A stretch of 64,000 bases of DNA from an uncultured Solirubrobacteraceae bacterium (GCA_963822245.1 CAWGGR010000006.1:144779-208778), one strand, 5' to 3'. Shown: positions 8,876 to 23,825, counted from the stretch's first letter. Program-made: numbers and translations. Notes: generated by a model from the sequence alone, not told the origin.

Positions 8876-9247
8876 CGCCTACTCCTCCAAGCCGCCGGGC
8901 TGCGGGTGCCCGTCACCATCGCACCGGCTCGTCGGCCCCGCTAGTGGTTTGCCAGCCGGCCGACGTGCGCGGCGATCGCATTGGCAGAGGATTCGATGCC
9001 TTCTTCCCAGAAGGGATCCGGCAGCGTCTCGGCCGCCCGGCCATTAGCTTTCGCCGCGAGAGCGGAGCTCGCGCCGAGAAGACCGCCACCGGCACACGCT
9101 ACGCCGCCGACGACCGACTTTGCAAGAAACTCCCGACCATCAAGCACTCCAAGCCCCCTTGTAGCTGATCGCATGCTTCCCCTGGCGGAGCCTACCAGTG
9201 CGGGTCTGGCTCGCCGCCGGGGCCGGCCTTACCGTAGAGCGGTGACG

Positions 9248-10762
9248 ATGAGGCTGCGAGGACTCCTGTCTGCGGCGATTGGCGCTGTCGCGCTCGCCGC
9301 GGTGCCCGCGGCGGCCACCGCCGAAGTTGTGACGCTCGGGGCCGCGGACCAGAACCAGACGCTCGTTGGTCCCGCGTTTGCGGGGTCTGAGGTGGTGTGG
9401 GCCGAGCGGGCGCTTCCCGGTGCCTCGCGCGCCCAGCTGTCGGTGCTCGCCGCGGTTCCGGGAGCGCACGGGTCGACGCTGTTCTCCACGCCGCCGCTGT
9501 CTTCGGCTGAAGATGAAATAGATCCCCTCGGCCTCGTCGCCTCGCCGACGAGGATCGCGCTCGCCTACCAGGTCGAAGTCCCCGAATGTGGCCGCCGCTC
9601 CGGGGCATGCCCCCAGCCGGATCTACGAGAAGTGCTCTCCGTGGCAGCGTTCGGCGGCACCCTCGGCGGACCGCTTCGCAGACTCACCGCCGCCGGCCTG
9701 AAGAACGGCGCGCTCGGTCTCTCAGGCGAAGAACTGGTGCTCGTCGAGCCACTGCGCACGGGCGGCGCCGGCGCATACGTGGAGAACCTCGCAGGCGCTG
9801 CGCCCGCACGTGACATTGGCATGGTCGGCACCGCCGGCGTATCGGTCGCCGGGCCCTACATCGCCAGCTCGAGCGCCGGCGCGATCACCGTGATGACGCT
9901 GGCCGGGGCGCCCGTCTACAGCGTGGCGCTGCCGCTCGCGGACGCGGCAGGATGCACCTCTGACTCAAGCGGAGTGGGCCGCGAACAGGACGGAAGCGCA
10001 CCGTGCGGCTACGCGCTCGACGCCGACGGCACGCTGGCGATCGCGGGCAGCGGCCCGGCGGGCCTCTACTGGGCCTCGCCCGCACAGCCACAGCTGCACC
10101 CGGTCGCGGTCACACTCGCAAGTCCTCTCGTTGCGATCGCCGACGATGAGATCGTCTACCTCAGCCCGCTCGGCGCAAACTCCACACAACTCGAGCTCAC
10201 CGATCTGTCCGGCGGCACGCGCGCGATCAGCTCCCCGATCAACGACGGCGGGGCGGGGCTCTCGGGGCTCGCGTTCAACGGCACGAGCGTCGCGTGGGCC
10301 GATCACTGCGTCTACGCCGCCGGCGTTGCTGCCGGCGCGCCGGGCGGCCCACCGGAACGCGCCTGTGAGGCGGTGACGATCCAGCCCGGCGAGAACGAAA
10401 GCACGAAGGTCGCCGCCGACGGGCGCGTCAGGCTTGCCTTGAGCTGTCAGTACTCGCCGTGCAGCGGCTCGTTGGCGCTGACGAGCACACTCGACAGGAG
10501 CATCGGCACGGGCAGGCGCACGAGGCTCAAGCAGGTGAGAGTGACGATTGCCAGCGGGAGCTTCACGGCGCTCCCGGTCAGGGAAGCCGACAGCGTCTCG
10601 CTCAGCCTCAACCAAAGGGGGCTGAGGCTGCTGCGCGAAAGCCGCCACGGCCTGAGCGCCACCCTGACGGCGACGGTAGCGCTCGCGTCGACTGCGCAGA
10701 CGACGAGCGCAGCCGTGTCCCTTCACAGCACAGGACCACGCCGCCGACCGCCGGACGAGTAG
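9248..10762 (+). CDS. Secreted beta-rich protein with Cys-containing basic C-terminal domain
   Basis: Signal peptide MRLRGLLSAAIGAVALAAVPAAATA; C-terminal LSCQYSPCSGSLAL...LSLNQRGLRLL. Confidence 0.7.
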   Translation: MRLRGLLSAAIGAVALAAVPAAATAEVVTLGAADQNQTLVGPAFAGSEVVWAERALPGASRAQLSVLAAVPGAHGSTLFSTPPLSSAEDEIDPLGLVASPTRIALAYQVEVPECGRRSGACPQPDLREVLSVAAFGGTLGGPLRRLTAAGLKNGALGLSGEELVLVEPLRTGGAGAYVENLAGAAPARDIGMVGTAGVSVAGPYIASSSAGAITVMTLAGAPVYSVALPLADAAGCTSDSSGVGREQDGSAPCGYALDADGTLAIAGSGPAGLYWASPAQPQLHPVAVTLASPLVAIADDEIVYLSPLGANSTQLELTDLSGGTRAISSPINDGGAGLSGLAFNGTSVAWADHCVYAAGVAAGAPGGPPERACEAVTIQPGENESTKVAADGRVRLALSCQYSPCSGSLALTSTLDRSIGTGRRTRLKQVRVTIASGSFTALPVREADSVSLSLNQRGLRLLRESRHGLSATLTATVALASTAQTTSAAVSLHSTGPRRRPPDE

Positions 10763-10846
10763 CCGAGCGGGGCCGCCTCTGGGTCGTCACCGGGACGGCC
10801 GCTGAGCGGCTAGGCACGAGCGGCGGCGCTTGCGATCGTATAGCTG

Positions 10847-11491
10847 ATGGACCCCTGCTCGAACAGCGTCTCGCGCCCACCCGCGACGCTCGCGCTCGGC
10901 GCGATCACGCTCACGCGCTGGCGCAGCAGCGACCTCGAGCCCCTGTTCGCAGCGGTCACGCGGAGCATCGAGCACCTGCGCCCATGGCTCGCGTTCGCGG
11001 GCGAGCACAGCCGCGACTCGATCGCTCGGTTCCTCGCCGACAGCGACAGCGGCTGGGAGCGCGGCGAGCACTTCCGCTACGCGATTCGTGACCGCGACGG
11101 GACGATCGCGGGCAGCATCGCGCTGATGGCCCGGATCGGCCCGAACGGGCGCGAGATCGGCTACTGGGTCGGCGCGCGCCACGTGCACAGGGGCATCGCC
11201 ACGCTGGCCGCTGCCGCGCTCACAGAGCGGGGACTCGCGCTCGCCGGTGTCGAGCACATCGAGATCCACCACGACGAGGCGAACCTCGCGAGCGCCGCGA
11301 TTCCCGCCCGGCTCGGCTTCCGCAAGCTCGGCACGTTCGCCGCCGAGCCGAAAGCGCCTGCGGATGCCGGTCGCGACGTGCGCTGGCGGCTCGACGCGGC
11401 CGACTTCGCCGCGAGCCCCGCGTGTGCCCTGCTCGCCGCGCTTCGCGCGCGCACGGTCACGCCCGGGCCTTCGCCGCAGAGGACGCGCTGA
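10847..11491 (+). CDS. RimJ/RimL-type GNAT acetyltransferase
   Basis: HLRPWL, EIGYWV...RGIAT, NLASAAIPARLGF. Confidence 0.88.
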   Translation: MDPCSNSVSRPPATLALGAITLTRWRSSDLEPLFAAVTRSIEHLRPWLAFAGEHSRDSIARFLADSDSGWERGEHFRYAIRDRDGTIAGSIALMARIGPNGREIGYWVGARHVHRGIATLAAAALTERGLALAGVEHIEIHHDEANLASAAIPARLGFRKLGTFAAEPKAPADAGRDVRWRLDAADFAASPACALLAALRARTVTPGPSPQRTR

Positions 11492-11518
11492 CGCGCTGCT
11501 CGATGCGGCCAGCCGGCC

Positions 11519-11950
11519 TCAGGCCTCGGGTGGGCTCTCGCCGGCGCGTGCGCGCGCCGCGACGACCTGTTCATGCACGTGCCAGTGCCAGCCTTCGCGC
11601 AGCTCGAGGATCGCCGCCGGCTCCTCCTGGCGCCAGTTGCGATGCAGCACGACCGCCGCGAACAGCGCCTCGGCGACGATGTTCGGGCGCTCGCGCACGG
11701 CGAGGTTGATGACCGTCAGCAGGTCTTCCGGCGCGGTCACCTCATACAGCTTTTCGAGCCCCCCCTGGCCTGCGTCGAGCACCTCGACGAGATCCGCGCT
11801 CGCGCTCATCGCGCGCTGTTCGGCAAGTGCGACGAGCGCGCCGCGCGCCTGCGCCGGGAGCGCGTCGATCGCCGCGTCGCGCTGCTCCTCGGACATCGAT
11901 GCGAACTCGCCGAGGAACCTCAGCACCCAGTCCTCCTCGCTCGCATTCAT
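11519..11950 (-). CDS. Hypothetical helical protein
   Basis: GAGGAG SD before ATG 11950; protein-like composition. Confidence 0.55.
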   Translation of the reverse strand: MNASEEDWVLRFLGEFASMSEEQRDAAIDALPAQARGALVALAEQRAMSASADLVEVLDAGQGGLEKLYEVTAPEDLLTVINLAVRERPNIVAEALFAAVVLHRNWRQEEPAAILELREGWHWHVHEQVVAARARAGESPPEA

Positions 11951-12065
11951 CGCTGCTCCTCCTCGTTCGTCTCTCGCTGGGCGCGCCGTCCCGCCGGCAC
12001 GATACGCCCCGCCCAGGTCGGCGCGTGGGCATTGCACCCCACGCGTGTGCGTGCCACAGCGCCGC

Positions 12066-13949
12066 TCAGATCCCCGGGCGATTCCTGAAGCCGTTGCCGC
12101 GACGATCCCCGCTCGACGCTTCCCATGCGGCGTTCCAGTCGTTCGTCTCGCGCATCATCGCGTCGGCCGCATCGCGCGCCGCCAGATCCTCCGCTTCGGC
12201 TGCCTGCTGGGCCGCCAGCGACGCGGCCACGGGCGGCGCGACCGGCGCGGCAACCGCCGTCGCGGCCGTACCCGTCGCAGTCTCCGCGACCGCCATCTCC
12301 TCGGTTCGCGCCTCGTTCACGAGCCGCGTCAGCGGATGCTCGCCGGCGTAGCCCTCGGCCGGTTCGGGCACCTGCGGGTTGAGCGCATAGCGGAAATGCC
12401 CGCTCTCATCGGTCACCCAGTAGGCATCCCCCTCGGCGGTCGTCTCGTGCAGGATCGAGCGGTCGTAGTGTTCGGCGATCCGCGCGAGCGCCTCCATGTC
12501 GGTGACGTCGATCACGGCGACGCCCGGCAGCTGCCAGACGCGGTCGACGGGCACGATCATGCGTCGGTAGCGCGACTGGATCGTGGCCGACTCCTCGCGC
12601 CGGCGCGGTCGGATGAGCACCCGCGCGGCGATCAGAGAAGCGATGATCAGCAGGATCGCCACGAGCGAGAAGACGCGCGCGCCCGCGACCGGCACGTGCA
12701 CGAAGCCGAGGTTCAGATCGAGCGCCTGGCTGTGCTCGGCGCTCGCCGAGCCGCTCTGGGACTGGGTGAACTGGCTCGGCGACGGCTGTGCTGCCGCCGT
12801 AGCCGAAGCCGGGGCGCCCGCGACCGTCGGCTGAATCTCACCGGTGGTGATCTGGAACGGGAACTGCGGCGAGAAGGTCGTGTGCAGCGGCAGCCGGCCG
12901 ATCGTCCCGGTCGAGCTCACATGCGGGCTGATCGTGACCGTGTAGCTGCCGCTCGCGCCGGTCGCGATCTTGAAGCGCTCCATCAGCGCGAGCAGCGAGG
13001 TGACGCTCAACGGCGCCGAGATCACGCCGTGGTCACCGTGGAAGTAGGCCGGCGGCCCCAGCGCGAAGGTGTTCTGCCAGCCGCTCGTCGAGGCGACGGT
13101 CGCATCCAGCGTGAGCTTCCCCGCGAGCGCGTGCGGCGCGTTCGATTCGAACAGGTAGTTGAAGTGGATCTCGGCCGCACGCACGACCTGGGTGAACAGC
13201 GGATCGCCAGTCACAGCGCGGTTTTCCGGATACACCGGCCCGGGAGGCGCCTGTGCGGTATAGGACAGCGTACCGGCCTGCTGGTAGGGGACCTTGACCG
13301 GCAGGCGCGCGCTCGAGGAGCGCGTGAACGCGAGCAGCGCGAGCAGCAGGAACGGCATCAGCACGGTCGCCGCGACCATCAGCACGCTCGCCGCCGGCAG
13401 CTCGACCGGCGCGTGCACCGGCATGCGCACGCGCGGGCTCTTCGCGTCCTCGCCCTTTCGCCGTGCCCTACCGCGACGGCGGCGGCGTTTCGTGAAGGCC
13501 GCTCCGGCGAACAGCAGCGTCCCGAAGGCGACGAGGATGCCGACGAGCGCGGGCGAGCGCAGCGAATGCAGCGTCGCCCCCGCGCCTGGAACGTGCAACC
13601 ACAGGGCGCCGATGATCTGGCTGCCTCTGGGGTGTTCGAAGTCCACGAAGTTGTTGTGATCGCCCTTCATCACGTAGCGTGAGCCCGCGCGCCCGATGAT
13701 CCGGTGCAGCACGATCGTGTGGAAGATGATGCTGTTGTAGGCGACGATTTCGCCGACGTGATAGCTGCTCTGAGCGCGGACGACCGCGAGGTCACCGGTG
13801 TGGAAGCGCGGCTGCATGCTGACCCCGTCGGTCACCACGTAGCTGGTGTCGCCGCCGAGAGCAGCCGGGGCGAAGCAGAACCACAGCGCGCCGATGATGA
13901 TCAGGCCAAGAAGGCCAGAGAGGAGCTTCTTGGTTCGAGGCGGTCGCAT
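12066..13949 (-). CDS. SipW-type (Ser-His) signal peptidase I fused to a DUF5305-like extracellular domain and a cytoplasmic tail
   Basis: GVSMQP (catalytic Ser), IVLHRII (His), MKGDHNNFVD; then TM, beta-rich domain, TM, cytoplasmic domain. Confidence 0.85.
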   Translation of the reverse strand: MRPPRTKKLLSGLLGLIIIGALWFCFAPAALGGDTSYVVTDGVSMQPRFHTGDLAVVRAQSSYHVGEIVAYNSIIFHTIVLHRIIGRAGSRYVMKGDHNNFVDFEHPRGSQIIGALWLHVPGAGATLHSLRSPALVGILVAFGTLLFAGAAFTKRRRRRGRARRKGEDAKSPRVRMPVHAPVELPAASVLMVAATVLMPFLLLALLAFTRSSSARLPVKVPYQQAGTLSYTAQAPPGPVYPENRAVTGDPLFTQVVRAAEIHFNYLFESNAPHALAGKLTLDATVASTSGWQNTFALGPPAYFHGDHGVISAPLSVTSLLALMERFKIATGASGSYTVTISPHVSSTGTIGRLPLHTTFSPQFPFQITTGEIQPTVAGAPASATAAAQPSPSQFTQSQSGSASAEHSQALDLNLGFVHVPVAGARVFSLVAILLIIASLIAARVLIRPRRREESATIQSRYRRMIVPVDRVWQLPGVAVIDVTDMEALARIAEHYDRSILHETTAEGDAYWVTDESGHFRYALNPQVPEPAEGYAGEHPLTRLVNEARTEEMAVAETATGTAATAVAAPVAPPVAASLAAQQAAEAEDLAARDAADAMMRETNDWNAAWEASSGDRRGNGFRNRPGI

Positions 13950-14014
13950 GGTCCGAAACGGGCGCGGAGCGGCCGAGTACACAAGCCGCTCCGCATAGCC
14001 CTGTTCATTGCTTG

Positions 14015-14428
14015 CTATTCGATCGTCACTGTTCCGCTGCTGACGGCGGCGACAGAGAGTTTCACGCCTTCCGCAACCGGAACCGGCGCCGGGAATTTGC
14101 AGGTGACCGCGAACGGCGTGGCTTTCGCTTCGCCACAGTCCGCCCAGTCGGCTTTCACCGGCGCGCTTTCGGTCAGTGCGGCCTTGACGTCGGTCGCGGC
14201 CTTGTTCAGGTCGAAGGTGACTTCCGTCATCGTCGTACCTGCTTCGTTGAACGTGTAGTTCGTCGGTGAAGCGACTTCGTAGCCACTCACCGTCGCTGAG
14301 CCGGCACCCGCCGAGTGTGCTTCGACCGTGTTGCTCGCGGTGAACGCGTATGCGCCCACCCCGATCACAGCCGCGAACACAAACGCCAGTACGCCGACGA
14401 GGTTTCGCTTCCTAAAATGCGTTGACAC
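14015..14428 (-). CDS. Small secreted SipW-cognate (TasA/CalY-like) protein, 137 aa
   Basis: GTG start with AAGGGGG SD; basic-hydrophobic leader ending GVGAYA-FTASNTV; beta-rich body with two Cys; adjacent to the SipW-type peptidase. Confidence 0.75.
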   Translation of the reverse strand: MSTHFRKRNLVGVLAFVFAAVIGVGAYAFTASNTVEAHSAGAGSATVSGYEVASPTNYTFNEAGTTMTEVTFDLNKAATDVKAALTESAPVKADWADCGEAKATPFAVTCKFPAPVPVAEGVKLSVAAVSSGTVTIE

Positions 14429-14567
14429 GTCAGTGCCCCCTTTTCTGTGTTGGTGGACACCTGGCGTGTCCTCCCGGGCGCATCGACATGCCTTTATCGT
14501 TGCTACACGCCTGCACCCCCGATTGCAGACGAAAGTTGAGGTTTGGCGCTCGGCTGGGCGTTTTCTT

Positions 14568-15056
14568 TCAGTCGTTCCACCAGAGGTCCTCCTGCTCGGC
14601 GGCCGAGCGCTCGATCTCCTCGAGTGTGACGTCTGTGCGCCGATCCTCGACCATCGTCTGCAACGCCTCGCCGATGCTCGGGGCCCAGACGTGCCGCGCG
14701 ACGGCCACGCGCCCGGAGTCCTCGTCGAACAGTTTCCATTCGAGCTCGACCAGCGGCGCGCGCGACTGCGGCGCGTCATCGGGCACCGGGGCGCCCCAGC
14801 CGTAGAGCGTGATCTGTGCCTGCCAGCCGTGCGGGCAGAGCTCGCCCATTACGGCAAGCGCCTGCCACTGGTCGGACACCGGTCCGGGCCGCTGCGGGCG
14901 CCGCAGCCGGTGGCGGGCGATCAGGGCTGCCGCCGCTGCCATCACGACGATCAGCACGATCACGAGCAGCGTGTCGTGAGCGACCGCCTGCGCCGGGTGC
15001 GCGGTCCCGCCCTGCGGGCCGCTCGCGATCACGAAGGCGGCGGCGAAGGCGCTCAT
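14568..15056 (-). CDS. Hypothetical single-TM protein
   Basis: Hydrophobic segment LLVIVLIVVMAAAAALIA followed by a Trp-rich domain. Confidence 0.6.
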   Translation of the reverse strand: MSAFAAAFVIASGPQGGTAHPAQAVAHDTLLVIVLIVVMAAAAALIARHRLRRPQRPGPVSDQWQALAVMGELCPHGWQAQITLYGWGAPVPDDAPQSRAPLVELEWKLFDEDSGRVAVARHVWAPSIGEALQTMVEDRRTDVTLEEIERSAAEQEDLWWND

Positions 15057-15230
15057 CGCAGGCCGCTCACGCCGCCTGATCGGGCCGAGGAAGCAGATGC
15101 CACCCGCTTGCTCTCATCGCCTCTCCCACGGTAGCCGCTCGGCCACCGTCGTGCGCTGCCATTCCCCCGGCCGCCGGTGCCCGGCGCGTGCCCGTCGGGC
15201 AAGCGCCGCTGCCAGCCGCCGGCGGAGCGC

Positions 15231-15356
15231 TCAGGCGCGCTCAGCGCCGATTCCGAGTGCGCGCCTGACCGTCTCGCGCATGAACAGCCGATAGGCCACG
15301 TCGGTCAGGGCAAGTGCCGTGATCACGCGCCTCAAAAGTACCCCTGACTCCCCCAT
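15231..15356 (-). CDS. Small 41-aa protein (not in ORF track)
   Basis: AAGGAGGAG SD before ATG; MGESGVLLRRVITALALTDVAYRLFMRETVRRALGIGAERA. Confidence 0.6.
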   Translation of the reverse strand: MGESGVLLRRVITALALTDVAYRLFMRETVRRALGIGAERA

Positions 15357-15512
15357 TACGCTCCTCCTTGAACGTGGTGCTGCGTGCTCCCCTGTGTCCC
15401 CTGTTTATCTGCTCCCGAACAACGGTAGGGGATCGGACCAGGGCAGTCAACGTCTGCACGCTCGCCGTCACGCAGCCGCTGGGGACGCGGCCGCGGTAGT
15501 AGCCTGCGGGCG

Positions 15513-16163
15513 ATGGCGGACACGGGTACGATCGCCTCGCTGGCAACAGCCGCGGGGACCCTCGTGTTGGCGATCGCGACGTTCTCCTCGACCCGCTCGG
15601 CAAACCGCGCGGCACGGGTCTCCGAGCAGGCGCTGAAGGTCGGCCTGCGCCCGGTTCTGCTCAACGCCCGCCCGCAGGACCCGGCGCAGAAGGTCGGCTT
15701 CATCGATGACCACTGGCTGATGCTGCGCGACGGGCTCGCCGCGGTCCAGGAGGCGGAGGAGAAGCTGTATCTCGCGATCCCGCTGCGCAACGTCGCCTCC
15801 GGGCTCGCCGTGCTGCACGGCTGGCACATCTGGCCGCTGCGCGCGAGCGGCGAGCAGCCCCCGGTGGCCGCCGAGGAGTTCCGGCGGCTGCAGCGCGACC
15901 TGTACGTGCCGGCCGGCGATATCAGCTTCTGGCAGGCCGCTGTGCGCGATCCCTCCGAGCCGCTGTATCAGCCACTGCGCGACGCGATCCGTGCCCGCAG
16001 CGGGCTCAGCGTCGACATCCTCTACGGCGATCACGACGGTGGCCAGCGCACGATCACGCGTTTCTTCCTGGGACCGCGCCAGCATGGCGACGAGGACGAG
16101 CCTTGGCTGTGGATCTGCTCGACCTCGCGCCACTGGAACCTCGATCGCGAGGACCCGCGCTGA
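15513..16163 (+). CDS. Hypothetical protein with N-terminal TM anchor
   Basis: IASLATAAGTLVLAIATF TM segment, then a globular domain. Confidence 0.65.
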   Translation: MADTGTIASLATAAGTLVLAIATFSSTRSANRAARVSEQALKVGLRPVLLNARPQDPAQKVGFIDDHWLMLRDGLAAVQEAEEKLYLAIPLRNVASGLAVLHGWHIWPLRASGEQPPVAAEEFRRLQRDLYVPAGDISFWQAAVRDPSEPLYQPLRDAIRARSGLSVDILYGDHDGGQRTITRFFLGPRQHGDEDEPWLWICSTSRHWNLDREDPR

Positions 16164-16176
16164 GGTCGCCGCGAGC

Positions 16177-17136
16177 TCAGCTCTGCCCGTAGCCGAGCAG
16201 CTCGAAGCTCTCGAGCGCCGCGTTCACCGCCCCCTCCGCGGCTTCGACCTGCTGCTTAGCGAGCGCGTATTCGCCCGGGTCTTCCGCGCTCGCGGCTGCG
16301 GCGAGCGCGGTGTAGGCGCTGCGCGCCTGCGCGATCGCCGCGGCGAGCGCCGTCTGCGCGGCGCTCGCCGCGGGCGGCGGTTCGAGCTTGAGGAGCGCTT
16401 CGGAGGCATCCGCAAAGCGGGTGGACAGAGCGCTCGCGAGCGGCGCGACCGCGGCGAGGCTTTCGCGGGCGTGGATCTCGCGGCGCAGCGTCACGCGCTC
16501 CTTCTCGAGCCTGCCGAGCAGCGGCGCGAGCTGGGCGGCGTAGGCGTTGTCCGGGCTGAGCACGTCGGCGGACTGGCCGACGAGCGTCAGCTGGTCGACG
16601 ATTTCTTCGCACTCGTGCAGGTCGGCCGCGTCGCCACTCGCCGCGTCGCAGGCGACGATCGTCGGCTGCGCGCCGAGGTTCGGGATCACATACAGGTCGA
16701 CGATGCGGTTGAAGCCGGGAACGCTCAGCTGGCTGTAGCGGTAGGCCTGGACGTTTGCGAGGCTCACCACTTCGGTGTGCGGCACACCGTGCAGGCGCGA
16801 GAGGAACGATTGCGGCAGTGGGCTCGCTCCGCTGCCGGCGAACTGCCCGCTGAACAGGCCCGCTCGCGCGGCGTCGCCGCCCGGCGCGAGCAGGAACGGT
16901 CGTGCGATCGCGATGCCGGGGACGGCCGGCATCGTGCTCACCCGCTGCCAGCTCGCGGGATATTCGAACAGGACCGTGCCCACCGAGCCGACGTGGGTCG
17001 GCCCGCTCTGCGCGACCGGCACGTCGCCGCCGCCCGCGCTCGATGTGCCATGAATCCCGACCAGATAGGCAACGATCGCGATCACCGCGAGAATCGGGAT
17101 CACGACCGCCGGCAGCACGCGATTTGAGCGATACAC
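16177..17136 (-). CDS. Membrane-anchored extracellular protein (alpha/beta domain plus helical bundle)
   Basis: N-terminal TM, FEYPASWQ start of domain, Ala-rich C-terminal helices; 3 bp from the upstream gene. Confidence 0.7.
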   Translation of the reverse strand: MYRSNRVLPAVVIPILAVIAIVAYLVGIHGTSSAGGGDVPVAQSGPTHVGSVGTVLFEYPASWQRVSTMPAVPGIAIARPFLLAPGGDAARAGLFSGQFAGSGASPLPQSFLSRLHGVPHTEVVSLANVQAYRYSQLSVPGFNRIVDLYVIPNLGAQPTIVACDAASGDAADLHECEEIVDQLTLVGQSADVLSPDNAYAAQLAPLLGRLEKERVTLRREIHARESLAAVAPLASALSTRFADASEALLKLEPPPAASAAQTALAAAIAQARSAYTALAAAASAEDPGEYALAKQQVEAAEGAVNAALESFELLGYGQS

Positions 17137-17139
17137 GCT

Positions 17140-17646
17140 CTAACCGGAACTGTCGAACGACGTGCCGCTGCCTTCGTTCGCGGGCGCGGAGTGCGTGCTC
17201 GGCGGCGTCCCGCCGCTCGTCGGCGACGGCGTGCTCGCGGGGGTGCTCGGCGGCGCGCTCGCTGGCGCCGTGTGCTGGACGGGCGCCGTCTCCGCCGGCG
17301 CGCTGACGCTCGGCGCGAGCACGACGTGCGCTTTCGCCGGTGTGCTCGGCGTCGGGGCCGCATGGCTCACGACCGCCGCTGGGGGCGGTGGTGGCGGCGG
17401 GCTCGTCAGCGCCAGCTCCGGCGCACCGCCGAGCGCGGCCGGCACGACGACCGTGGATGTGCTCACGGGCAGCCGCAGCGGGGCGACTTCGCGCGGGGCA
17501 GGGACCTGGCGCTCCCTGCGACCGATGGTGTAGAAGCCCGCGAACACAGCCGCGCACAGGCATGCCGTGAGCAGCAGGGTGCGCATGTCGATGCGGGTGT
17601 CGCGAGGGACCGGGGCGCCGCGCGAGCTGATGTTGAGGCTGTTCAT
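17140..17646 (-). CDS. Pro/Thr/Ser-rich single-TM protein
   Basis: TM LLLTACLCAAVFAGFYTIG then a low-complexity Pro-rich tail; TGATG overlap with the adhesin stop. Confidence 0.65.
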   Translation of the reverse strand: MNSLNISSRGAPVPRDTRIDMRTLLLTACLCAAVFAGFYTIGRRERQVPAPREVAPLRLPVSTSTVVVPAALGGAPELALTSPPPPPPPAAVVSHAAPTPSTPAKAHVVLAPSVSAPAETAPVQHTAPASAPPSTPASTPSPTSGGTPPSTHSAPANEGSGTSFDSSG

Positions 17647-20600
17647 CAGGTCGGGCAGGCGATCGGGATCGTGCCGGCGGGGTTCAGGCAGCTGTCAAAG
17701 CGTGACGGCAGCTTGCCGCGGCGGACCGTGAAGCGCATGAACTTGCCGATCTCGCCGGGACTCGAGACCTTGATTTCGAGGATCACGCCCGCAGGCAGCG
17801 AGCGCTCGAAGCGGCGCAGCGTGACGAGCACTGTGCCGAGCTTGCTCTTGCTCGCGCCCGATGAGGCGACAACGCTCTCGGACTTGCTCGGGCAGCCGTG
17901 CCCGCGACAGGTGACGTTGACGGTCGCGCCAACCGGGGCGAGCACCGTCAGCAGGCTCACCTTGACGCTCAGCGCGTGCTCGGTGCCGGCGATGCGCACG
18001 ACCGGGAAGGGCTGCATCACTTTGACCGCCGGCGCGGTCACCGTGATCGTCTTGCTGACCGTGCTGCTGAGGCCGTTCGCGTCGGTCACACGCAGCTGCA
18101 CGACGTGCGGGCCGACGGTCGTGAAGATCGTGCTGAGCACGGCCGAGCCCGGCTGGAAGACGTTGTTGCCCGCGACCGCCCACGCGTATCCGGTGATCGC
18201 GCTGTCAGCATCGCTCGAGGTCGACGCGAGCGTCACGGGTTCGCCGGTGTGGGGCGCGCTCGGCAGCCACTCGAACGAGGCGACCGGCGGCACCGGCGTC
18301 GACGTCGCGGGCGCCGCAGGCGGCGCGAGCACGGTGAAGGTCGACGGTTCGCTGACGCCGATGTTGCCGACGTCATCGGCCTGTTCGGCGAGCAGTGTGT
18401 AGGTGCCGGGGGCGAGGCCCGAGAAGACCGTCGACCAGCTCCCGATCGCGACCGGGACCGTCACCGTCTGCAGCGCCGCGCCGCCCACGCCGCTGCCCGC
18501 ATACAGGTGCACGGCGACGGCCGGCTGATCGCCCGCCGCCCTCCCCGCCGCGCCGGAGGCGGTCTCCGCCGTGCCCGTGGTCGATGTCCCCGTGACGGGC
18601 GCCGTGAGCGTCACCGCGGGCGCATCCGCGTCGACCGTGAACACCGCCGTCGCGGCGCTGATCGTGGTCGGACCTCCGGGTTCGCGCTCTTCTGCCTGCG
18701 CGACGTAGCTGACGCCGTCGCTGAGGCTCGGCACCGGCCCAACGGCCCAGTCCGCGGTCGTGAGCGCAACGGGCGTCGGCGTCGGCGTTACCAGCCGGTA
18801 GGACGGCCATTCATAGATCTTGACCGTCACCGTGTTGCCTTCGCCGGTGGGCGCCGTGCCGTGAAAGGTCGGGTTGGCGCTCGAGAACAGTTCCGTGCCG
18901 CGCGGCACGCCGACGTTTTCAAGCGTCACCACGGTCGTTACCGTGAATGACACCGGTTCGCTCGTGCCGATGTTGCCGGCGCTATCCGCCTGCTCGGCGA
19001 TCACCGTGTAGACGCTGCCGTTTTTCAGCGGTTTCACGGGTGACACCGCCCAGTGTCCTGCCTTCACCGCAACTTCGATGACTTCCACCGGCGTTCCCGA
19101 CGCCGTCGCGCCGAGATAGATCTTCAGGTCGACGGTTGGGTCATCGCCGGTGAGTTCCCCGGCGGGGCCGCTGAATGTCGGTTTGAGTTCGTTCAGGCCC
19201 GCGTCGTTCGCGGGCGTCGTGATGCCGACGGCCGGCGGCGTCGTGTCGATCGTGAACGTCATCGCGGCGCTCCTGCCGACGTTGCCGGCCTCATCTTCCT
19301 GGGTCGCCTGCGCGGTGTAGGTGCCGTCCGCCAGGTGCGGCACGTCAAACGACCATGTGTCGCCGCTGACCGTCCCGGTCCCGGAGGCGGCGATCGTGCC
19401 CTTGGCTTCGCCGCCCTCGAAGACGGTGACCGCGACCGTCGCGGCGTCGCCGGGTTCGGTCCCCGCGGTGCCGCTCAGCGTCGGTTCCGTGTCTTTGCCC
19501 GGCGTCGGCACCGTGTTGATCGTGACCTTCGGCTTGACCGTGTCGATCCTGAACTCGACCGGGGCGCTGACGCCGACGTTGCCCGCGTCGTCTGACTGTT
19601 CGGCGACCGCGGTGTACGTGCCGTCGCCGAGCGTCGCACCGCTCGTGCCGGTGCTCCACGCGCCCGCTTTCGCGGGCGCGGTCAGCGTCTCGGATGGGCT
19701 CCCCGAGGCCGTTGCGCCCGCGTAGAGCTTGACCGTCACCGTCGGTTCATCGCCCGCAAGCTCACCGGCGAGGCCGCTGAACGTCGGCTTCGGGACGTTC
19801 GAGGCGCCGGCTGTCGGCGTCAGCAGCGAGACGACGGGCGGCGTCGAATCAATCGTGAACGTCGCCTTCTTGCTGAAGCCGTGATTGCCCGCTTCGTCTG
19901 ACTGTTCGGCGATCACCGTGTAGGTGCCGTCAGCGAGGTGCGGAGCGGTGAAGCTCCAGTCGCCGGTTTTCAGTGGCGCCGGGCCCTGCGCGGCGACCGT
20001 GCCCGTGGGTTCGCTGCCTTCATAGATCGTGACGTTCACCGCGCCGTCGCCGCTCGCGACGCTGCCGGTGCCGGTGAAGGTCGGCGTCGAGTCGTTCATC
20101 AGCACCGCAACCGGGTTCAACGTGACGAGCGGCTTGACGGTGTCGATGACGAATGTCCGCGGCGGCGTGCTCGTGCCGAGGTTGCCCGCCGCGTCTGACT
20201 GTTCGGCGATCGCCGTGTAGGTGCCGTCGGCGAGATGTGCAGGCGTGAAGGACCAGCCGGCGCCGCTCACCACCCCGAGCCCACTCGCGGCGATCGTCCC
20301 TGACGGCGAGCTGCCCGCGAAGATCGTGACTTTCACGTTCGCGGAGTCGCCCGCTTCGGTCCCGCGCACGCCGGTCAGCGTCGGCGTCGGGTTGTTCCCC
20401 GGAGATGGCACTTCGGCCATCGTCACCTTCGGCGCGACCGTGTCGATCGTGAACGTCACCGCTTTGCTCGAGCCGACGTTGCCCGCTTCATCCGACTGCG
20501 TAGCGATCGCGGTGTACGTGCCGTCGGCGAGGTGCGGGCCGGTGCTGCCCGTCGTCCAGCTGCCGGCGGCTGCCGGCACGTCGAGGGTGTCCGCGGGGCT

Positions 20601-22643
20601 GCCGCTCGTTCCTTCCCCGGCGTAGATCTTCAGCACGACCGTCTGCAGATCGCCGCTCGCCTGCCCGGCGCCGCCGCCGAACGTCGGCTGCGAGACATTC
20701 AGCGCGCCCGCCGCGGGGCTCGTCAGCGAGACTTTCGGGGCGCTCGTATCGACCGTGAAGGTCACCGGTGCGCTCACGCCGACGTTGCCCGCCGCGTCGA
20801 GCTGTTCGGCCACGGCCGTGTATGTGCCATCAGCGAGCGCGGGCACCGCATTCGTGCTCCACGCGCCCGCTTCGATGCTGACGTGCGAGAGCGTCTGCAC
20901 GGGCGTCCCTGTCGGCGTCGCGCCGCTGTAGATCTTCAGCGCGAGGGACGGTTCATCGCCGACGGCCTGGCCGCCGCTGCCGCTGAAGGTGAGCGTCGCC
21001 GCTTTTGAGATCGTGCCAGGCGCCGGCGCCGTGATCGCGACCAGCGGGGCCGTCGTGTCGACGGTGAACATAATCGTTTTGCTGACGCCGAGATTGCCCG
21101 CGTCATCGGACTGTTCGGCGATCGCGGTGTAGGTGCCGTCGGCGAGGTGCGGCGAGGTGAACGACCACGCGCCCCCGCTCACCGTCGGGGTGCCGGAGGC
21201 TGCTGGCGTCCCCGACGCCGCGGAGCCTTCGTAGATCTTCACCGCGACAGTCGCGGAATCGCCCGATTCCGTGCCGCCGGCGCCGCTCAGCGTCGGTTTC
21301 GGGTTTTTCGTCGGCGAGGCGAGCGTGTTGAGCGTGACCGCCGGCTTGACGGTGTCGATCGTGAACGGCACGCTGTTGCTCGTGCCGATGTTGCCCGCTT
21401 CATCGCTCTGCACAGCTTCCGCTGTGTAGCTGGCGTCGGCCAGATGCACCGATTTGTACGTCCACACGCCGCCGATCACCGGCACGGTTTCGACGACCGC
21501 CGGTTTGTCCGCCGAGGGTTTGCCCTTGAAGATCGTCAGCGTGACCGTCGGGCGGTCGCCCAGCAGCGTCCCCGCGGTGCCGCTCACCGTCGGCGTCGGG
21601 TTGTTCGACGCTGGCGCCATCGCGTTGATCGTCACGACCGGCTTGACGGTGTCGATCGTGAACGTCGTGCTCGCGCTGAGGCCGACGTTGCCCGCTTCAT
21701 CGCTCTGGGATGCGCGCGCGGTGTAGACGCCGTCGCTGAGGTGGGCCGCGGCGAACGACCAGGTGGCCCCGGTCGGGGTGACTTCGGCCGTCTGCGCGAC
21801 CGTCCCTTCCGGCGCGCTGCCGTGGTAGATCGTGACGGTCACGTGCGGGTGGTCGCCGGGCGCGATGCCGGCGCCGCCCGCCAGCGTCGGCGTCGCGTTG
21901 TTGCTCCACGGCGGCATGCTCGTCAGCGTCACCGCGGGCGCGGTCGTGTCGACCGTGAACGTCACCGCCTTGCTCGTGCCGAGGTTGCCGGCTGCGTCTT
22001 CCTGGGAGACCTGGGCGGTGTAGGTGCCGTCCGCGAGTTCAGCGACGGCGTGCGTCCAGCCGCCGCTTTCAACCGGGACGCTGGCCGATTCGACCGTCGC
22101 GCCGGCGAGCGTGGCGCCGGCGTGGATCGTCAGCTCGACGTTCTTGTCGTCGCCCGCTGACTCGCCCGCTTCGCCGCTGAGCGTCGGCGTCGAGTCTCTG
22201 CTCGGAGTCGGCACCGTGTCCAGCGTGACCACCGGCTTGGTCGTGTCGACCGTGAACGTGACTTCGGCGCTGCCGGTTTCCGCTTCGATCGTCTGTTCGG
22301 CGACGGCCGTATATTCCCCCTGTTCGAGCGGTTCCGGGGAGATTTCCCAGGTGCCTTCGAGAAACGGCAGGGCGAACTGCTGTTGCACCGGTGTGCCGCC
22401 GGCAACGGAGCCGCTGTAGATGTCGAGCGTGACGAACCCGCCCAGCGGGGCGCTCGTCGTGCCGCTGAACAGCGGCGTCCGGCTGCGTGTGAAGCTGCCG
22501 TTGAGCGGTTCGCTGATCGTGATGCCCGGCGGCGCCGCGAGCGCGTCCGCCGCGGGCATCGCGACGAGCGCGAGCAGCGCCAGCAGCGCGGCGGCAAGCG
22601 CGCGCGCAAGGGTCCTGCCAACCACTGTCCGAACGCCGCTCAC
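17646..22643 (-). CDS. Large secreted adhesin: 14 bacterial Ig-like repeats, PKD domain, Cys-containing C-terminal domain (~1665 aa)
   Basis: Likely GTG start at 22643 with signal peptide (ARALAAALLALLALVAMPAADALA); 14 counted units ending GTYTAxAEQSDxAGNxGxSxxxTFTIDT; PKD-like PVASF...YAW...VQLRVTD. Confidence 0.9.
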   Translation of the reverse strand: MSGVRTVVGRTLARALAAALLALLALVAMPAADALAAPPGITISEPLNGSFTRSRTPLFSGTTSAPLGGFVTLDIYSGSVAGGTPVQQQFALPFLEGTWEISPEPLEQGEYTAVAEQTIEAETGSAEVTFTVDTTKPVVTLDTVPTPSRDSTPTLSGEAGESAGDDKNVELTIHAGATLAGATVESASVPVESGGWTHAVAELADGTYTAQVSQEDAAGNLGTSKAVTFTVDTTAPAVTLTSMPPWSNNATPTLAGGAGIAPGDHPHVTVTIYHGSAPEGTVAQTAEVTPTGATWSFAAAHLSDGVYTARASQSDEAGNVGLSASTTFTIDTVKPVVTINAMAPASNNPTPTVSGTAGTLLGDRPTVTLTIFKGKPSADKPAVVETVPVIGGVWTYKSVHLADASYTAEAVQSDEAGNIGTSNSVPFTIDTVKPAVTLNTLASPTKNPKPTLSGAGGTESGDSATVAVKIYEGSAASGTPAASGTPTVSGGAWSFTSPHLADGTYTAIAEQSDDAGNLGVSKTIMFTVDTTAPLVAITAPAPGTISKAATLTFSGSGGQAVGDEPSLALKIYSGATPTGTPVQTLSHVSIEAGAWSTNAVPALADGTYTAVAEQLDAAGNVGVSAPVTFTVDTSAPKVSLTSPAAGALNVSQPTFGGGAGQASGDLQTVVLKIYAGEGTSGSPADTLDVPAAAGSWTTGSTGPHLADGTYTAIATQSDEAGNVGSSKAVTFTIDTVAPKVTMAEVPSPGNNPTPTLTGVRGTEAGDSANVKVTIFAGSSPSGTIAASGLGVVSGAGWSFTPAHLADGTYTAIAEQSDAAGNLGTSTPPRTFVIDTVKPLVTLNPVAVLMNDSTPTFTGTGSVASGDGAVNVTIYEGSEPTGTVAAQGPAPLKTGDWSFTAPHLADGTYTVIAEQSDEAGNHGFSKKATFTIDSTPPVVSLLTPTAGASNVPKPTFSGLAGELAGDEPTVTVKLYAGATASGSPSETLTAPAKAGAWSTGTSGATLGDGTYTAVAEQSDDAGNVGVSAPVEFRIDTVKPKVTINTVPTPGKDTEPTLSGTAGTEPGDAATVAVTVFEGGEAKGTIAASGTGTVSGDTWSFDVPHLADGTYTAQATQEDEAGNVGRSAAMTFTIDTTPPAVGITTPANDAGLNELKPTFSGPAGELTGDDPTVDLKIYLGATASGTPVEVIEVAVKAGHWAVSPVKPLKNGSVYTVIAEQADSAGNIGTSEPVSFTVTTVVTLENVGVPRGTELFSSANPTFHGTAPTGEGNTVTVKIYEWPSYRLVTPTPTPVALTTADWAVGPVPSLSDGVSYVAQAEEREPGGPTTISAATAVFTVDADAPAVTLTAPVTGTSTTGTAETASGAAGRAAGDQPAVAVHLYAGSGVGGAALQTVTVPVAIGSWSTVFSGLAPGTYTLLAEQADDVGNIGVSEPSTFTVLAPPAAPATSTPVPPVASFEWLPSAPHTGEPVTLASTSSDADSAITGYAWAVAGNNVFQPGSAVLSTIFTTVGPHVVQLRVTDANGLSSTVSKTITVTAPAVKVMQPFPVVRIAGTEHALSVKVSLLTVLAPVGATVNVTCRGHGCPSKSESVVASSGASKSKLGTVLVTLRRFERSLPAGVILEIKVSSPGEIGKFMRFTVRRGKLPSRFDSCLNPAGTIPIACPT

Positions 22644-22889
22644 AGCATCTCGTCTTCCATCCGAAGTCCGTTCTCGAGGCGGCCCGGCCAGTTCTCCTGA
22701 TACCTCCGGAATTGCTTCCGCCGGTTCAGATGATACGGGTGTTTGCAGGGAAATTGGAAGCGCTGCAGGGTTATTTGTACGGCTCTCGACGCATCCGCGC
22801 CTCGCCTCCGCGGCGCGACTATACGGCGCGGCCGCGGCGGGGCACGGCGCACCGCCGCACTCGCCCGTCAGGCCGTATCGTCTGCGCGA

Positions 22890-23825
22890 GTGCAAACGAC
22901 CGCGAACGCCGAGAAGTGGACAGCCGCGCAGATCCCCGATCTGCGCGGGCGCAGGGCGATCGTGACGGGCGCCAACAGCGGGCTCGGCCTCGTCACCGCC
23001 CGCGAGCTCGCAGCGCACGGAGCCGACGTCGTGCTCGCGTGCCGCAACACCGCCAAGGGCGAAGAGGCCCTGCGCGAGATCGCCGCCGCCGCGCCGGGCG
23101 CCGCGGTCGAGCTCGCCGAGCTCGATCTGTCGAGCCTCGCGTCCGTGCAGACGTTCGCCGAGCGCTTCCTCGCCGAGCACGATCGCCTTGACCTGCTCGT
23201 CAACAACGCCGGCGTGATGGCGCCGCCGCGGCGCGAGACGGCCGACGGCTTCGAGCTGCAGCTCGGCACGAACCATCTCGGGCACTTCGCGCTCACCGGG
23301 CGGCTGATCGGCGCGATGGCCGGGCGCGAGGACGCGCGTGTGGTCACGCTGAGCAGCAACGCGCACAAGTTCGGCCGCATCAACTTCGAGGACTTGCAGT
23401 CCGAGCGCCGCTACCGCCGCTGGGCGGCCTACGGGCAGTCCAAGCTCGCTGACCTGATGTCAGCGCTCGAGCTCGACCGGCGCCTGCGCGCGCGCGGGTC
23501 GACGATCTCGAGCCTCGCCGCCCACCCCGGCTACGCCGCGACGAACCTGCAGACGGCGGCCGCGCCGATTGCCGATCGGCTCGTCATGCAGCTGACGAAC
23601 GTCGTGATGGCGCAGAGCGCCGACAGCGGTGCGCTGCCGTCGCTGTACGCCGCGACGCAGCCCGGCCTCGAGGGCGGCATCTATGTCGGCCCCGACGGCG
23701 TGGGCGAGTTTCGCGGCCATCCCCACGAGGTCTCCCCCAGCCGCGCCGCACGCGACCCGGAGGCCGCCGCGCGGCTATGGGCGATCTCCGAGGAGCTCAC
23801 CGGCGTGCACTACGAGCTCGGCTGA
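22890..23825 (+). CDS. Short-chain dehydrogenase/reductase (retinol-dehydrogenase-like)
   Basis: [30 protein letters not shown]. Confidence 0.93.

Follow-up and report, generated by a model that had tools for sequence, protein, structure and literature searches.

We examined if two adjoining genes within a 64,000-nt stretch of DNA from an uncultured Solirubrobacteraceae bacterium (the window; G+C about 70%) form a self-contained cassette that exports a small protein and assembles it into fibres. The first-pass annotation of this DNA had proposed a minimal two-gene fibre system: a 137-aa secreted, beta-rich protein with an AYA-FTASNTV leader (here called the subunit), encoded directly before a Ser-His signal peptidase that is fused to a second extracellular domain and a cytoplasmic domain. 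Both open reading frames (ORFs) were found by ORF listing and translation, in the order claimed; they and the features discussed below lie on the minus strand. Comparison of the sequences makes it highly probable that the two genes encode a dedicated peptidase-substrate pair. Fibre formation by donor-strand complementation, which is argued by analogy, comes close to an even chance without exceeding it, and the explanation of the whole as an export-and-assembly cassette is evenly balanced between being right and being wrong.

The subunit ORF occupies 14015-14428(-), begins with GTG and encodes 137 aa. The frame of the peptidase was first called from GTG 13982 to 12066(-) (638 aa); its start is most likely ATG 13949, giving 12066-13949(-) and 627 aa, because its homologues start at the position that corresponds to Met12 and because GTG 13982 falls inside the hairpin between the two genes. 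This start was the single gene call of the first-pass annotation that had to be replaced; all of the others were correct. Residues of the peptidase are numbered below from GTG 13982, Met12 being the revised start. The strong Shine-Dalgarno sequence and the non-coding leader of about 140 bp ascribed to the subunit gene were likewise recovered: the former reads AAAGGGGG (spacing in Table 1), and the gap between the stop of the upstream ORF (14568) and the subunit start measured 139 nt.

The two genes are strictly coupled. Species-representative genomes supplied 80 loci, and in all 80 the gene of the fused peptidase came directly after that of the subunit, on the same strand, with its three parts complete unless the contig ended too soon. 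A sample of 301 genomes drawn evenly from the class (the class sample) contained 13 genomes with both genes, 3 with the subunit only (weak matches), 3 with the peptidase only (partial matches) and 282 with neither (Fisher p = 1.5e-17); the two genes were adjacent and in one orientation in 13/13 of the genomes with both. Homologues of subunit and peptidase do co-occur, then, which is the reverse of the outcome that the first-pass annotation had named as speaking against its proposal. The same pairing was seen in distant loci, among them L083 and L085, those of Anaerolineales and others. The genes flanking the pair in the window were kept only in its nearest relative, and no neighbour common to all loci was found when a tip, anchor, sortase or regulator was sought. 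A divergent BadF/BadG-type ATPase cluster recurs at about half of the loci and probably represents lineage synteny. Because the flanking genes are not conserved, the two genes can be taken as a self-contained cassette, in agreement with the minimal unit that had been proposed.

The N-terminus of the subunit is basic (RKR) and is followed by a single hydrophobic stretch (residues 7-32 by hydropathy), then by A-Y-A and FTASNTV. Along with the beta-sandwich model described below, these are the properties of the secreted, beta-rich precursor that had been described. In the mechanism that we propose, this 137-aa precursor would be exported by the Sec route and stay anchored in the membrane through its leader until the adjoining Sec11/SipW-type Ser-His-Asp peptidase cuts it at A-Y-A|FTASNTV. 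The leader and the residues YA|FTASN were identical in 76/76 loci. Among 339 distinct members of the family, position -3 was A, V, S, T or G, position -2 was Tyr in 95%, and position -1 was Ala in 96% and Gly in 4%. The search pattern that gathered these members had partly required Phe at +1, Asn at +5 and narrow sets of residues from +2 to +7, whereas Tyr at -2 was not imposed; Tyr -2, Phe +1, Asn +5 and the +2 to +7 sets were also nearly invariant in independent alignments. The predicted cleavage site is a textbook site for type I signal peptidase (SPase I), with additional invariant positions.

The small residues found at -3 and -1 in 339/339 members bear on an alternative in which the small protein is never cut, being instead a membrane-anchored accessory of the signal peptidase complex (SPC) type, comparable to Spc3/SPCS3 beside Sec11, with the real substrates encoded elsewhere. 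In its order of hydrophobic N-terminal helix and small beta-sandwich the protein does resemble SPCS3, the gene is strictly adjacent to that of the peptidase, whose catalytic domain is Sec11-like, and the preprint on AbpX likens the topology of SPase-DUF5305 fusions to the eukaryotic complex. We consider this alternative improbable: no subunit paralogue and no further protein carrying the leader motif turned up in a search of the genome, so that no substrate is evident; the hairpin between the genes speaks against expression at 1:1; some loci have 4-5 paralogues of the small protein for one peptidase; and no SPCS3 chain was among the Foldseek matches listed for the subunit models.

The peptidase belongs to the Sec11/SipW-type class, as the first-pass annotation had said. 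It matched TIGR02228 (archaeal and endoplasmic reticulum (ER)-type SPase I) over residues 18-164 at 68.9 bits, compared with a cut-off of 51.85 (72.2 bits in the whole-genome scan). Ser55 (GxSMxP), His93 (LHRI), Asp108 (GDxN) and Asp114 were invariant in 27 homologues of 48-91% identity, and the number of peptidase homologues exceeds 572. The best solved homologue was human SEC11A (7P2P; E = 4e-7), with the SMEP, HR and GDNN boxes aligned. The B. subtilis SipW equivalog model (NF046067) gave 21.8 bits compared with a cut-off of 190, and by this measure the enzyme is SipW-type by class of mechanism only, not an orthologue of SipW. Because the catalytic Ser, His and Asp are invariant across diverse homologues, the activity of the fused enzyme is predicted to be under selection. 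A second Sec11-type enzyme was sought in the genome scan and none was found; that the genome holds one such enzyme and one protein with the leader motif, and that the catalytic residues do not vary, supports the view that this enzyme is dedicated to this substrate.

The genome does encode a LepB-type SPase I (contig 2, 120 bits), and a site of the form A-x-A would suit LepB too. The housekeeping enzyme might cut the subunit, the fused protein serving as an assembly platform, a quality-control factor or an anchor, and the weak matches of just 2 of 48 subunit relatives to the model of the SipW-cognate signal agree with this. The invariance of Ser, His and Asp in more than 25 diverse homologues of the fused enzyme is difficult to reconcile with such a role, and the invariant Tyr -2, Phe +1 and Asn +5 suggest a specific enzyme; moreover, deletion of tafD in Haloarcula stops the processing of TafA despite the presence of general SPases (PMC11821415). 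Cleavage by LepB is thus the least probable of the alternatives that we weighed, and we infer that the fused peptidase is the enzyme that processes the subunit.

Four hydrophobic membrane segments were seen in the peptidase, and hydropathy and alignment agree that the catalytic part is joined to a second extracellular domain and a cytoplasmic domain. When the window protein was compared with PF17231 (DUF5305), residues 432-526 aligned to profile positions 115-211 at 22.2 bits, which is below the 29-bit gathering score. Because precomputed annotation places PF17231 on most of the peptidase homologues at 50-60% identity, and because two distant fusions, L083 and L085, cover the whole profile (38.4 bits over positions 16-217; 27.8 bits over 3-217), we assign the extra part of the peptidase to DUF5305; the check for this family, which the first-pass annotation had suggested, was positive at family level. 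The third transmembrane (TM) helix, an ectodomain of about 200 aa, the fourth TM helix and a cytoplasmic block together make up the DUF5305 architecture described elsewhere (bioRxiv 10.64898/2026.01.04.697558), as judged from hydropathy and alignment. Identity by tblastn across loci was 40-50% for the second ectodomain (P232, Y233 and W302 being among its invariant residues) and 60-80% for the conserved cytoplasmic block of 75 aa, which has many invariant residues; tblastn coverage usually stopped near residue 535-545, and the RRRRR loop of the peptidase was kept in the alignment. The fused domain had been thought to carry the anchor or assembly function. It corresponds instead to the published SPase-accessory DUF5305 (TafG-like) and not to an established anchor, and in our proposal this ectodomain, TM helix and cytoplasmic domain would act as an accessory subunit built into the enzyme.

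What the peptidase would release was then compared with known proteins. There were 468 close homologues of the subunit, all of them named "hypothetical" save one that carries the JGI label "type 1 fimbria pilin". Comparing the subunit profile with 1.84 billion cluster representatives gave 843 clusters (formed at 50% identity) at E <= 0.001, mostly of 115-150 aa. A high-GC branch of the family comes from metagenome-assembled genomes (MAGs) labelled Solirubrobacteraceae, Solirubrobacterales and Gaiellaceae, and a low-GC branch from Anaerolineales within the Chloroflexota. The subunit and 48 relatives could be assigned to no family of Pfam or NCBIfam, matches to DUF4131, Asr, BslA and Big_7 being judged noise, and a search of PDB sequences with the family profile returned chance matches alone (E > 1). 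These searches describe a large, unnamed family in Actinomycetota and Chloroflexota. Two database proteins of 479 and 738 aa (P0292 and P0308) start with the leader of the subunit, and where they cross the junction to the peptidase their sequence is out of frame and rich in Arg and Pro; they resemble MAG genes with a frameshift or a wrong call, not real fusions.

The subunit had been called "TasA-like", and as a statement of homology this could not be upheld. PF12389 (Peptidase_M73) matched neither the window subunit nor any of the 48 relatives at E <= 0.1, and hhalign of the subunit family profile with eight actinobacterial PF12389 proteins gave 25% probability over 7 columns. Genuine PF12389 proteins occurred in 46 of 301 Actinomycetota genomes and in the source genome there was none. 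The model of the SipW-cognate signal (TIGR04088), proposed as a check, did not match the window subunit at E <= 1, and the best of the two weak matches among its relatives was at E = 0.0017; the subunit motif G-x-G-x-Y-A|F-T is analogous to that signal but distinct from it. Chains of TasA, AbpA, thread, cannula and Tafi proteins were absent from the 50 Foldseek matches listed. In every test run, of sequence or of model, the subunit fell outside the TasA superfamily, and what it has in common with TasA is the logic of the signal only (small and aromatic residues, Phe, and a Thr/Ser-rich strand).

AlphaFold2 was used in two separate runs: the precursor was modelled from 29 sequences, the mature chain from 116. 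The core was in both runs a six-strand beta-sandwich (predicted local distance difference test score, pLDDT, about 87), with its six strands contained in about 85 residues, and in both runs mature residues 1-20 were not placed on this core (pLDDT 31-40). The N-terminal extension of some 20-22 residues (FTASNTV..HSAGAG..VSGY) holds 7 of the 15 nearly invariant columns of the broad alignment within the first 22 mature residues; the strongest conservation of the family surrounds the junction of leader and mature chain, outside of the fold. Of two conserved cysteines, Cys110 does not vary in the broad family and Cys98 hardly varies; among close relatives both are invariant. The mature 109-aa protein would accordingly be modelled as a disulfide-bonded sandwich that carries an invariant extension of about 20 residues, and an extension that is both invariant and unplaced fits a donor strand. 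It would most likely insert into the next subunit by donor-strand complementation, giving thin surface or matrix fibres.

Foldseek comparison of the two models with the PDB returned nothing at E <= 0.001, and the best neighbours were generic immunoglobulin (Ig)/FN3-like domains (TM-score <= 0.39). Weak matches to archaeal flagellins and pilins (E 0.1-0.5; root-mean-square deviation 16-19 Å) disappeared when the mature model was used, and had arisen because the precursor is shaped as a helix plus a sandwich. A type IV pilin with a class III signal peptide was rejected in addition for lack of a prepilin peptidase site (G|F/M-T-L-I-E) and of pil or tad genes among the neighbours. A sortase-assembled pilin was rejected as well: the C-terminus (...VSSGTVTIE) has neither LPXTG nor a TM helix, and no sortase is conserved in the flanks.

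Several non-coding elements are conserved around the subunit gene (Table 1). An nTAA[AG]G box lay 20-36 nt upstream of the leader inverted repeat in 56/65 loci compared with about 3% expected by chance; the window copy stands at the same distance and reads GTGTAG. This box may act as a promoter; a scan with the sigma-70 promoter consensus found none. The inverted repeat, which precedes the start codon by 24 nt at the median, occurs once only in the 3.44-Mb genome, and its variants (GAACAC..GTGTTC and GGCAC..GTGCC) retain the symmetry. It could be either an operator or a hairpin of the 5' untranslated region. Two tandem copies of the repeat were seen in some relatives. We propose that this conserved leader, with its boxes, its unique inverted repeat and its strong ribosome-binding site, would drive the subunit gene. 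A comparison of the region 11500-15200 with Rfam gave no match.

Just past the subunit stop, a strong hairpin was found in 77/78 loci. The intergenic regions of relatives folded with z < -2 in 59/64 cases (mean -4.5), and compensatory changes were found at 8/9 of the consensus pairs. The 91-nt intercistronic region of the window itself had a folding energy of -36.1 kcal/mol. This hairpin may act as a partial terminator or as a stabiliser of the mRNA 3' end, and by ending or protecting most of the transcripts it would probably lead to far more subunit than peptidase.

The question then turns on what an excess of mature subunit would do. Polymerisation is supported by the invariant, unplaced extension, by the six-strand core, by a hairpin that implies subunit in bulk, and by the 4-5 paralogues per peptidase of locus L083; it is favoured also by the published precedent for SPase I acting with DUF5305. 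Against this, neither sequence nor fold searches detected a match between the subunit and any known donor-strand fibre protein, and the fibre claim is made by analogy; recognition by the peptidase or its DUF5305 part could be the sole purpose of the invariant N-terminus; genes for a tip, an anchor or a chaperone are not conserved near the cassette, and a motif for anchoring to the cell wall is lacking in the subunit; the hairpin in the window is barely better than its shuffles (z = -1.9), has no U-tract (T-run) and was not called by the terminator scan; and every carrier of the cassette is an uncultured MAG.

Some of these points are what would be expected if the protein, once exported, stayed monomeric or formed a two-dimensional surface coat instead of a fibre (examples being a layer like that of hydrophobins or BslA, an envelope ligand binder or a signalling protein), its N-terminus being a recognition tag. 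All of the evidence for a dedicated peptidase-substrate pair fits such a protein too, as do the generic Ig/FN3-like neighbours, the lack of a match to fibre subunits and the lack of conserved tip, anchor and chaperone genes. Recognition tags, however, are rarely invariant for some 20 residues beyond the cleavage site across two phyla, and AlphaFold2 left this segment off the fold; paralogous subunit arrays at other loci and the bulk production implied by the hairpin are also more easily understood for a polymer, and where a dedicated SPase I and DUF5305 have been described together they are tied to fibres (PMC11821415; bioRxiv 10.64898/2026.01.04.697558). We regard export without polymerisation as rather unlikely, although it is the alternative to be taken most seriously, and we favour assembly of the subunit by donor-strand complementation.

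Table 1. Coordinates of the cassette's features in the window, in the order of transcription; residues in the peptidase rows are counted from GTG 13982
Feature	Coordinates	Strand	Description
Upstream leader/promoter box	14502..14515	-	TGCAGGCGTGTAGC; consensus in relatives TGCAG(G/A)CGTAAAGC
Second leader box TCGATG	14481..14486	-	Lies upstream of the inverted repeat, its register kept in nearly all loci listed
Leader inverted repeat GGACAC-GCCAG-GTGTCC	14455..14471	-	Strict motif in 60/78 loci, 66 with a looser pattern
Shine-Dalgarno AAAAGGGGG	14436..14444	-	7 nt before the GTG start; AAGGGGG/AAGGAGG in relatives
Subunit signal peptide	14345..14428	-	Residues 1-28: basic n-region, hydrophobic h-region of ~17 residues, c-region A-Y-A
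Mature subunit	14018..14344	-	109 aa: invariant N-terminal extension, then six-strand beta-sandwich (predicted); stop codon 14015-14017
Intercistronic GC-rich hairpin	13960..14001	-	GGGC..GCGGAGCGGC / GCCGCTCCGC..GCCC
Peptidase N-terminus	13566..13949	-	Met12 start, TM1 (~18-45), Sec11/SipW-type catalytic domain (~46-139)
TM2 (~140-165), Arg-rich cytoplasmic loop (~166-192), TM3 (~193-225)	13308..13565	-	From hydropathy; joins the peptidase to the DUF5305 module
Second ectodomain (~226-424)	12711..13307	-	Extracellular DUF5305 part; least conserved domain
TM4 (~425-460) and cytoplasmic domain (~461-535)	12378..12710	-	C-terminal DUF5305 part; VIDVxD..IAEHYDRSILHE..FWVTDESGQFRY
Variable Ala/Glu-rich cytoplasmic tail (~536-638) and stop	12066..12377	-	Homologues differ in length and sequence

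The cassette is distributed patchily. It was present in none of the same-family genomes of the class sample (at least 20 among the non-matching genomes), and a same-genus genome (G204) was without it and had almost no DNA match to 9000-17600 of the window (8.6 kb). Because of these absences we place the cassette in a variable, accessory region, where it is patchy by gain or loss. The immediate flanks, kept only in the nearest relative (L003), are ORF 14568-15056(-), which encodes 162 aa with one hydrophobic segment, and ORF 11519-12037(-), which encodes an acidic protein of 172 aa; neither has a Pfam family. A protein of 1906 aa with many Ig-like repeats is encoded at 17646-23366(-), at a distance of 3 kb on the upstream side of the cassette, and two small membrane proteins accompany it; in other genomes it is unlinked to the cassette, with partial matches in just 3/80 loci. 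At the distant locus L083:488-4561 (67% G+C, metagenome) one SPase-DUF5305 fusion stands amid 4-5 small paralogues with the same leader motif, and one of these (139 aa) has a Gly/Asp-rich segment of the GGGGD type that resembles a calcium-binding repeat. Codon choice for Glu was also recorded. All eight Glu codons of the subunit are GAA, with a genome-wide GAA share of about 0.29 in long open frames (probability by chance about 5.5e-5). Within the peptidase there are 2 GAA in the catalytic ectodomain, 2 GAG in the cytoplasmic loop, 2 GAA and 4 GAG in the second ectodomain, and 14 GAG and 4 GAA in the cytoplasmic C-terminal part.

Since 2022, peptidase-dependent donor-strand fibres (TasA, Abp, Tafi, cannulae and threads) have come to be seen as a main building principle of the biofilm matrix in Bacillota and archaea. 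The cassette suggests that the same logic is used by abundant uncultured soil Actinomycetota (Solirubrobacterales and Gaiellales) and by Anaerolineales, with a much smaller, unannotated family of subunits and only two genes. The peptidase half is a known and published design, fusions of SPase I with DUF5305, and the link between these and TasA-type fibres, having been described in 2025-2026; what is new here are the cis-elements and a subunit family that is unnamed and unrelated to TasA. By analogy, and with somewhat more doubt than confidence, we suggest that the 843 clusters represent a widespread new class of minimal donor-strand subunits, unrelated to TasA, in monoderm Actinomycetota and in Chloroflexota, for which one fused assembly factor, and so two genes, would suffice. 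The cytoplasmic DUF5305 domain and the leader element might couple the output of fibres to the state of the cell. If polymerisation is true, no simpler system of this kind would be known, a name and a function would be given to hundreds of clusters now called "hypothetical protein" and to the bacterial SPase-DUF5305 fusions, and the cassette would offer a compact and tractable model for the help that DUF5305 gives to a Sec11-type peptidase. If the subunit is monomeric, the cassette would still be a clear case of a private signal peptidase with one substrate.

Of the systems known, the haloarchaeal Tat-fimbriae (Tafi, with TafA/TafE as pilins) offer a close parallel: a dedicated S26/Sec11-type signal peptidase adjoins the gene of the fibre subunit and is accompanied by a DUF5305 protein. 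In Haloarcula, deleting the dedicated SPase I, TafD, blocks both TafA processing and fimbria formation, and the DUF5305 protein TafG is thought to assist TafD; bacterial SPase-DUF5305 fusions were listed in the same work (PMC11821415; PMC12337348). Here, in contrast, peptidase and DUF5305 are in one polypeptide, the predicted export is of the Sec type with no twin-arginine motif, and there is one subunit without TafB, TafC or TafF partners; at about 109 aa, this subunit has no detectable relation to TafA/TafE or to DUF1102.

DUF5305 accompanies SPase I in both Tafi and AbpX loci, and the two are sometimes fused (PMC11821415; PMC12337348; bioRxiv 10.64898/2026.01.04.697558); in TasA-superfamily loci it has been described as an accessory of SPase I, with a fusion in Anaerolinea thermophila (bioRxiv 10.64898/2026.01.04.697558). 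The minimal locus of AbpX in Pyrodictium abyssi is likewise composed of a subunit gene and a downstream TIGR02228 peptidase (bioRxiv 10.64898/2026.01.04.697558). AbpX has two cysteines when mature and assembles by donor-strand complementation, and two Cys are conserved in the subunit described here. The two systems differ in that the AbpX SPase has ten TM helices, whereas the peptidase of the cassette has four including the DUF5305 part, and in that AbpX has 163 mature residues compared with 109; for the present subunit no link to the TasA superfamily and no Ca-binding motif was identified.

The B. subtilis tapA-sipW-tasA operon also has a Sec11/SipW-type Ser-His peptidase reserved for a subunit of the matrix fibre, and the TasA signal, like the one described here, ends in small and aromatic residues with F at +1 or +2; in TasA the mature N-terminus is the donor strand (PMC9674648; PMC10151520). 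The cassette differs in having no TapA-like partner, a subunit that is not Peptidase_M73/TasA, and a peptidase with fused DUF5305. The eukaryotic complex of SEC11A/C with SPCS1-3 (7P2P/7P2Q) has the same Ser, His and Asp boxes, and its catalytic subunit works with membrane-anchored accessories; it is, however, a general enzyme of the ER and not one with a single substrate, and its accessories are separate proteins unrelated to DUF5305, in contrast to the fused module of the cassette.

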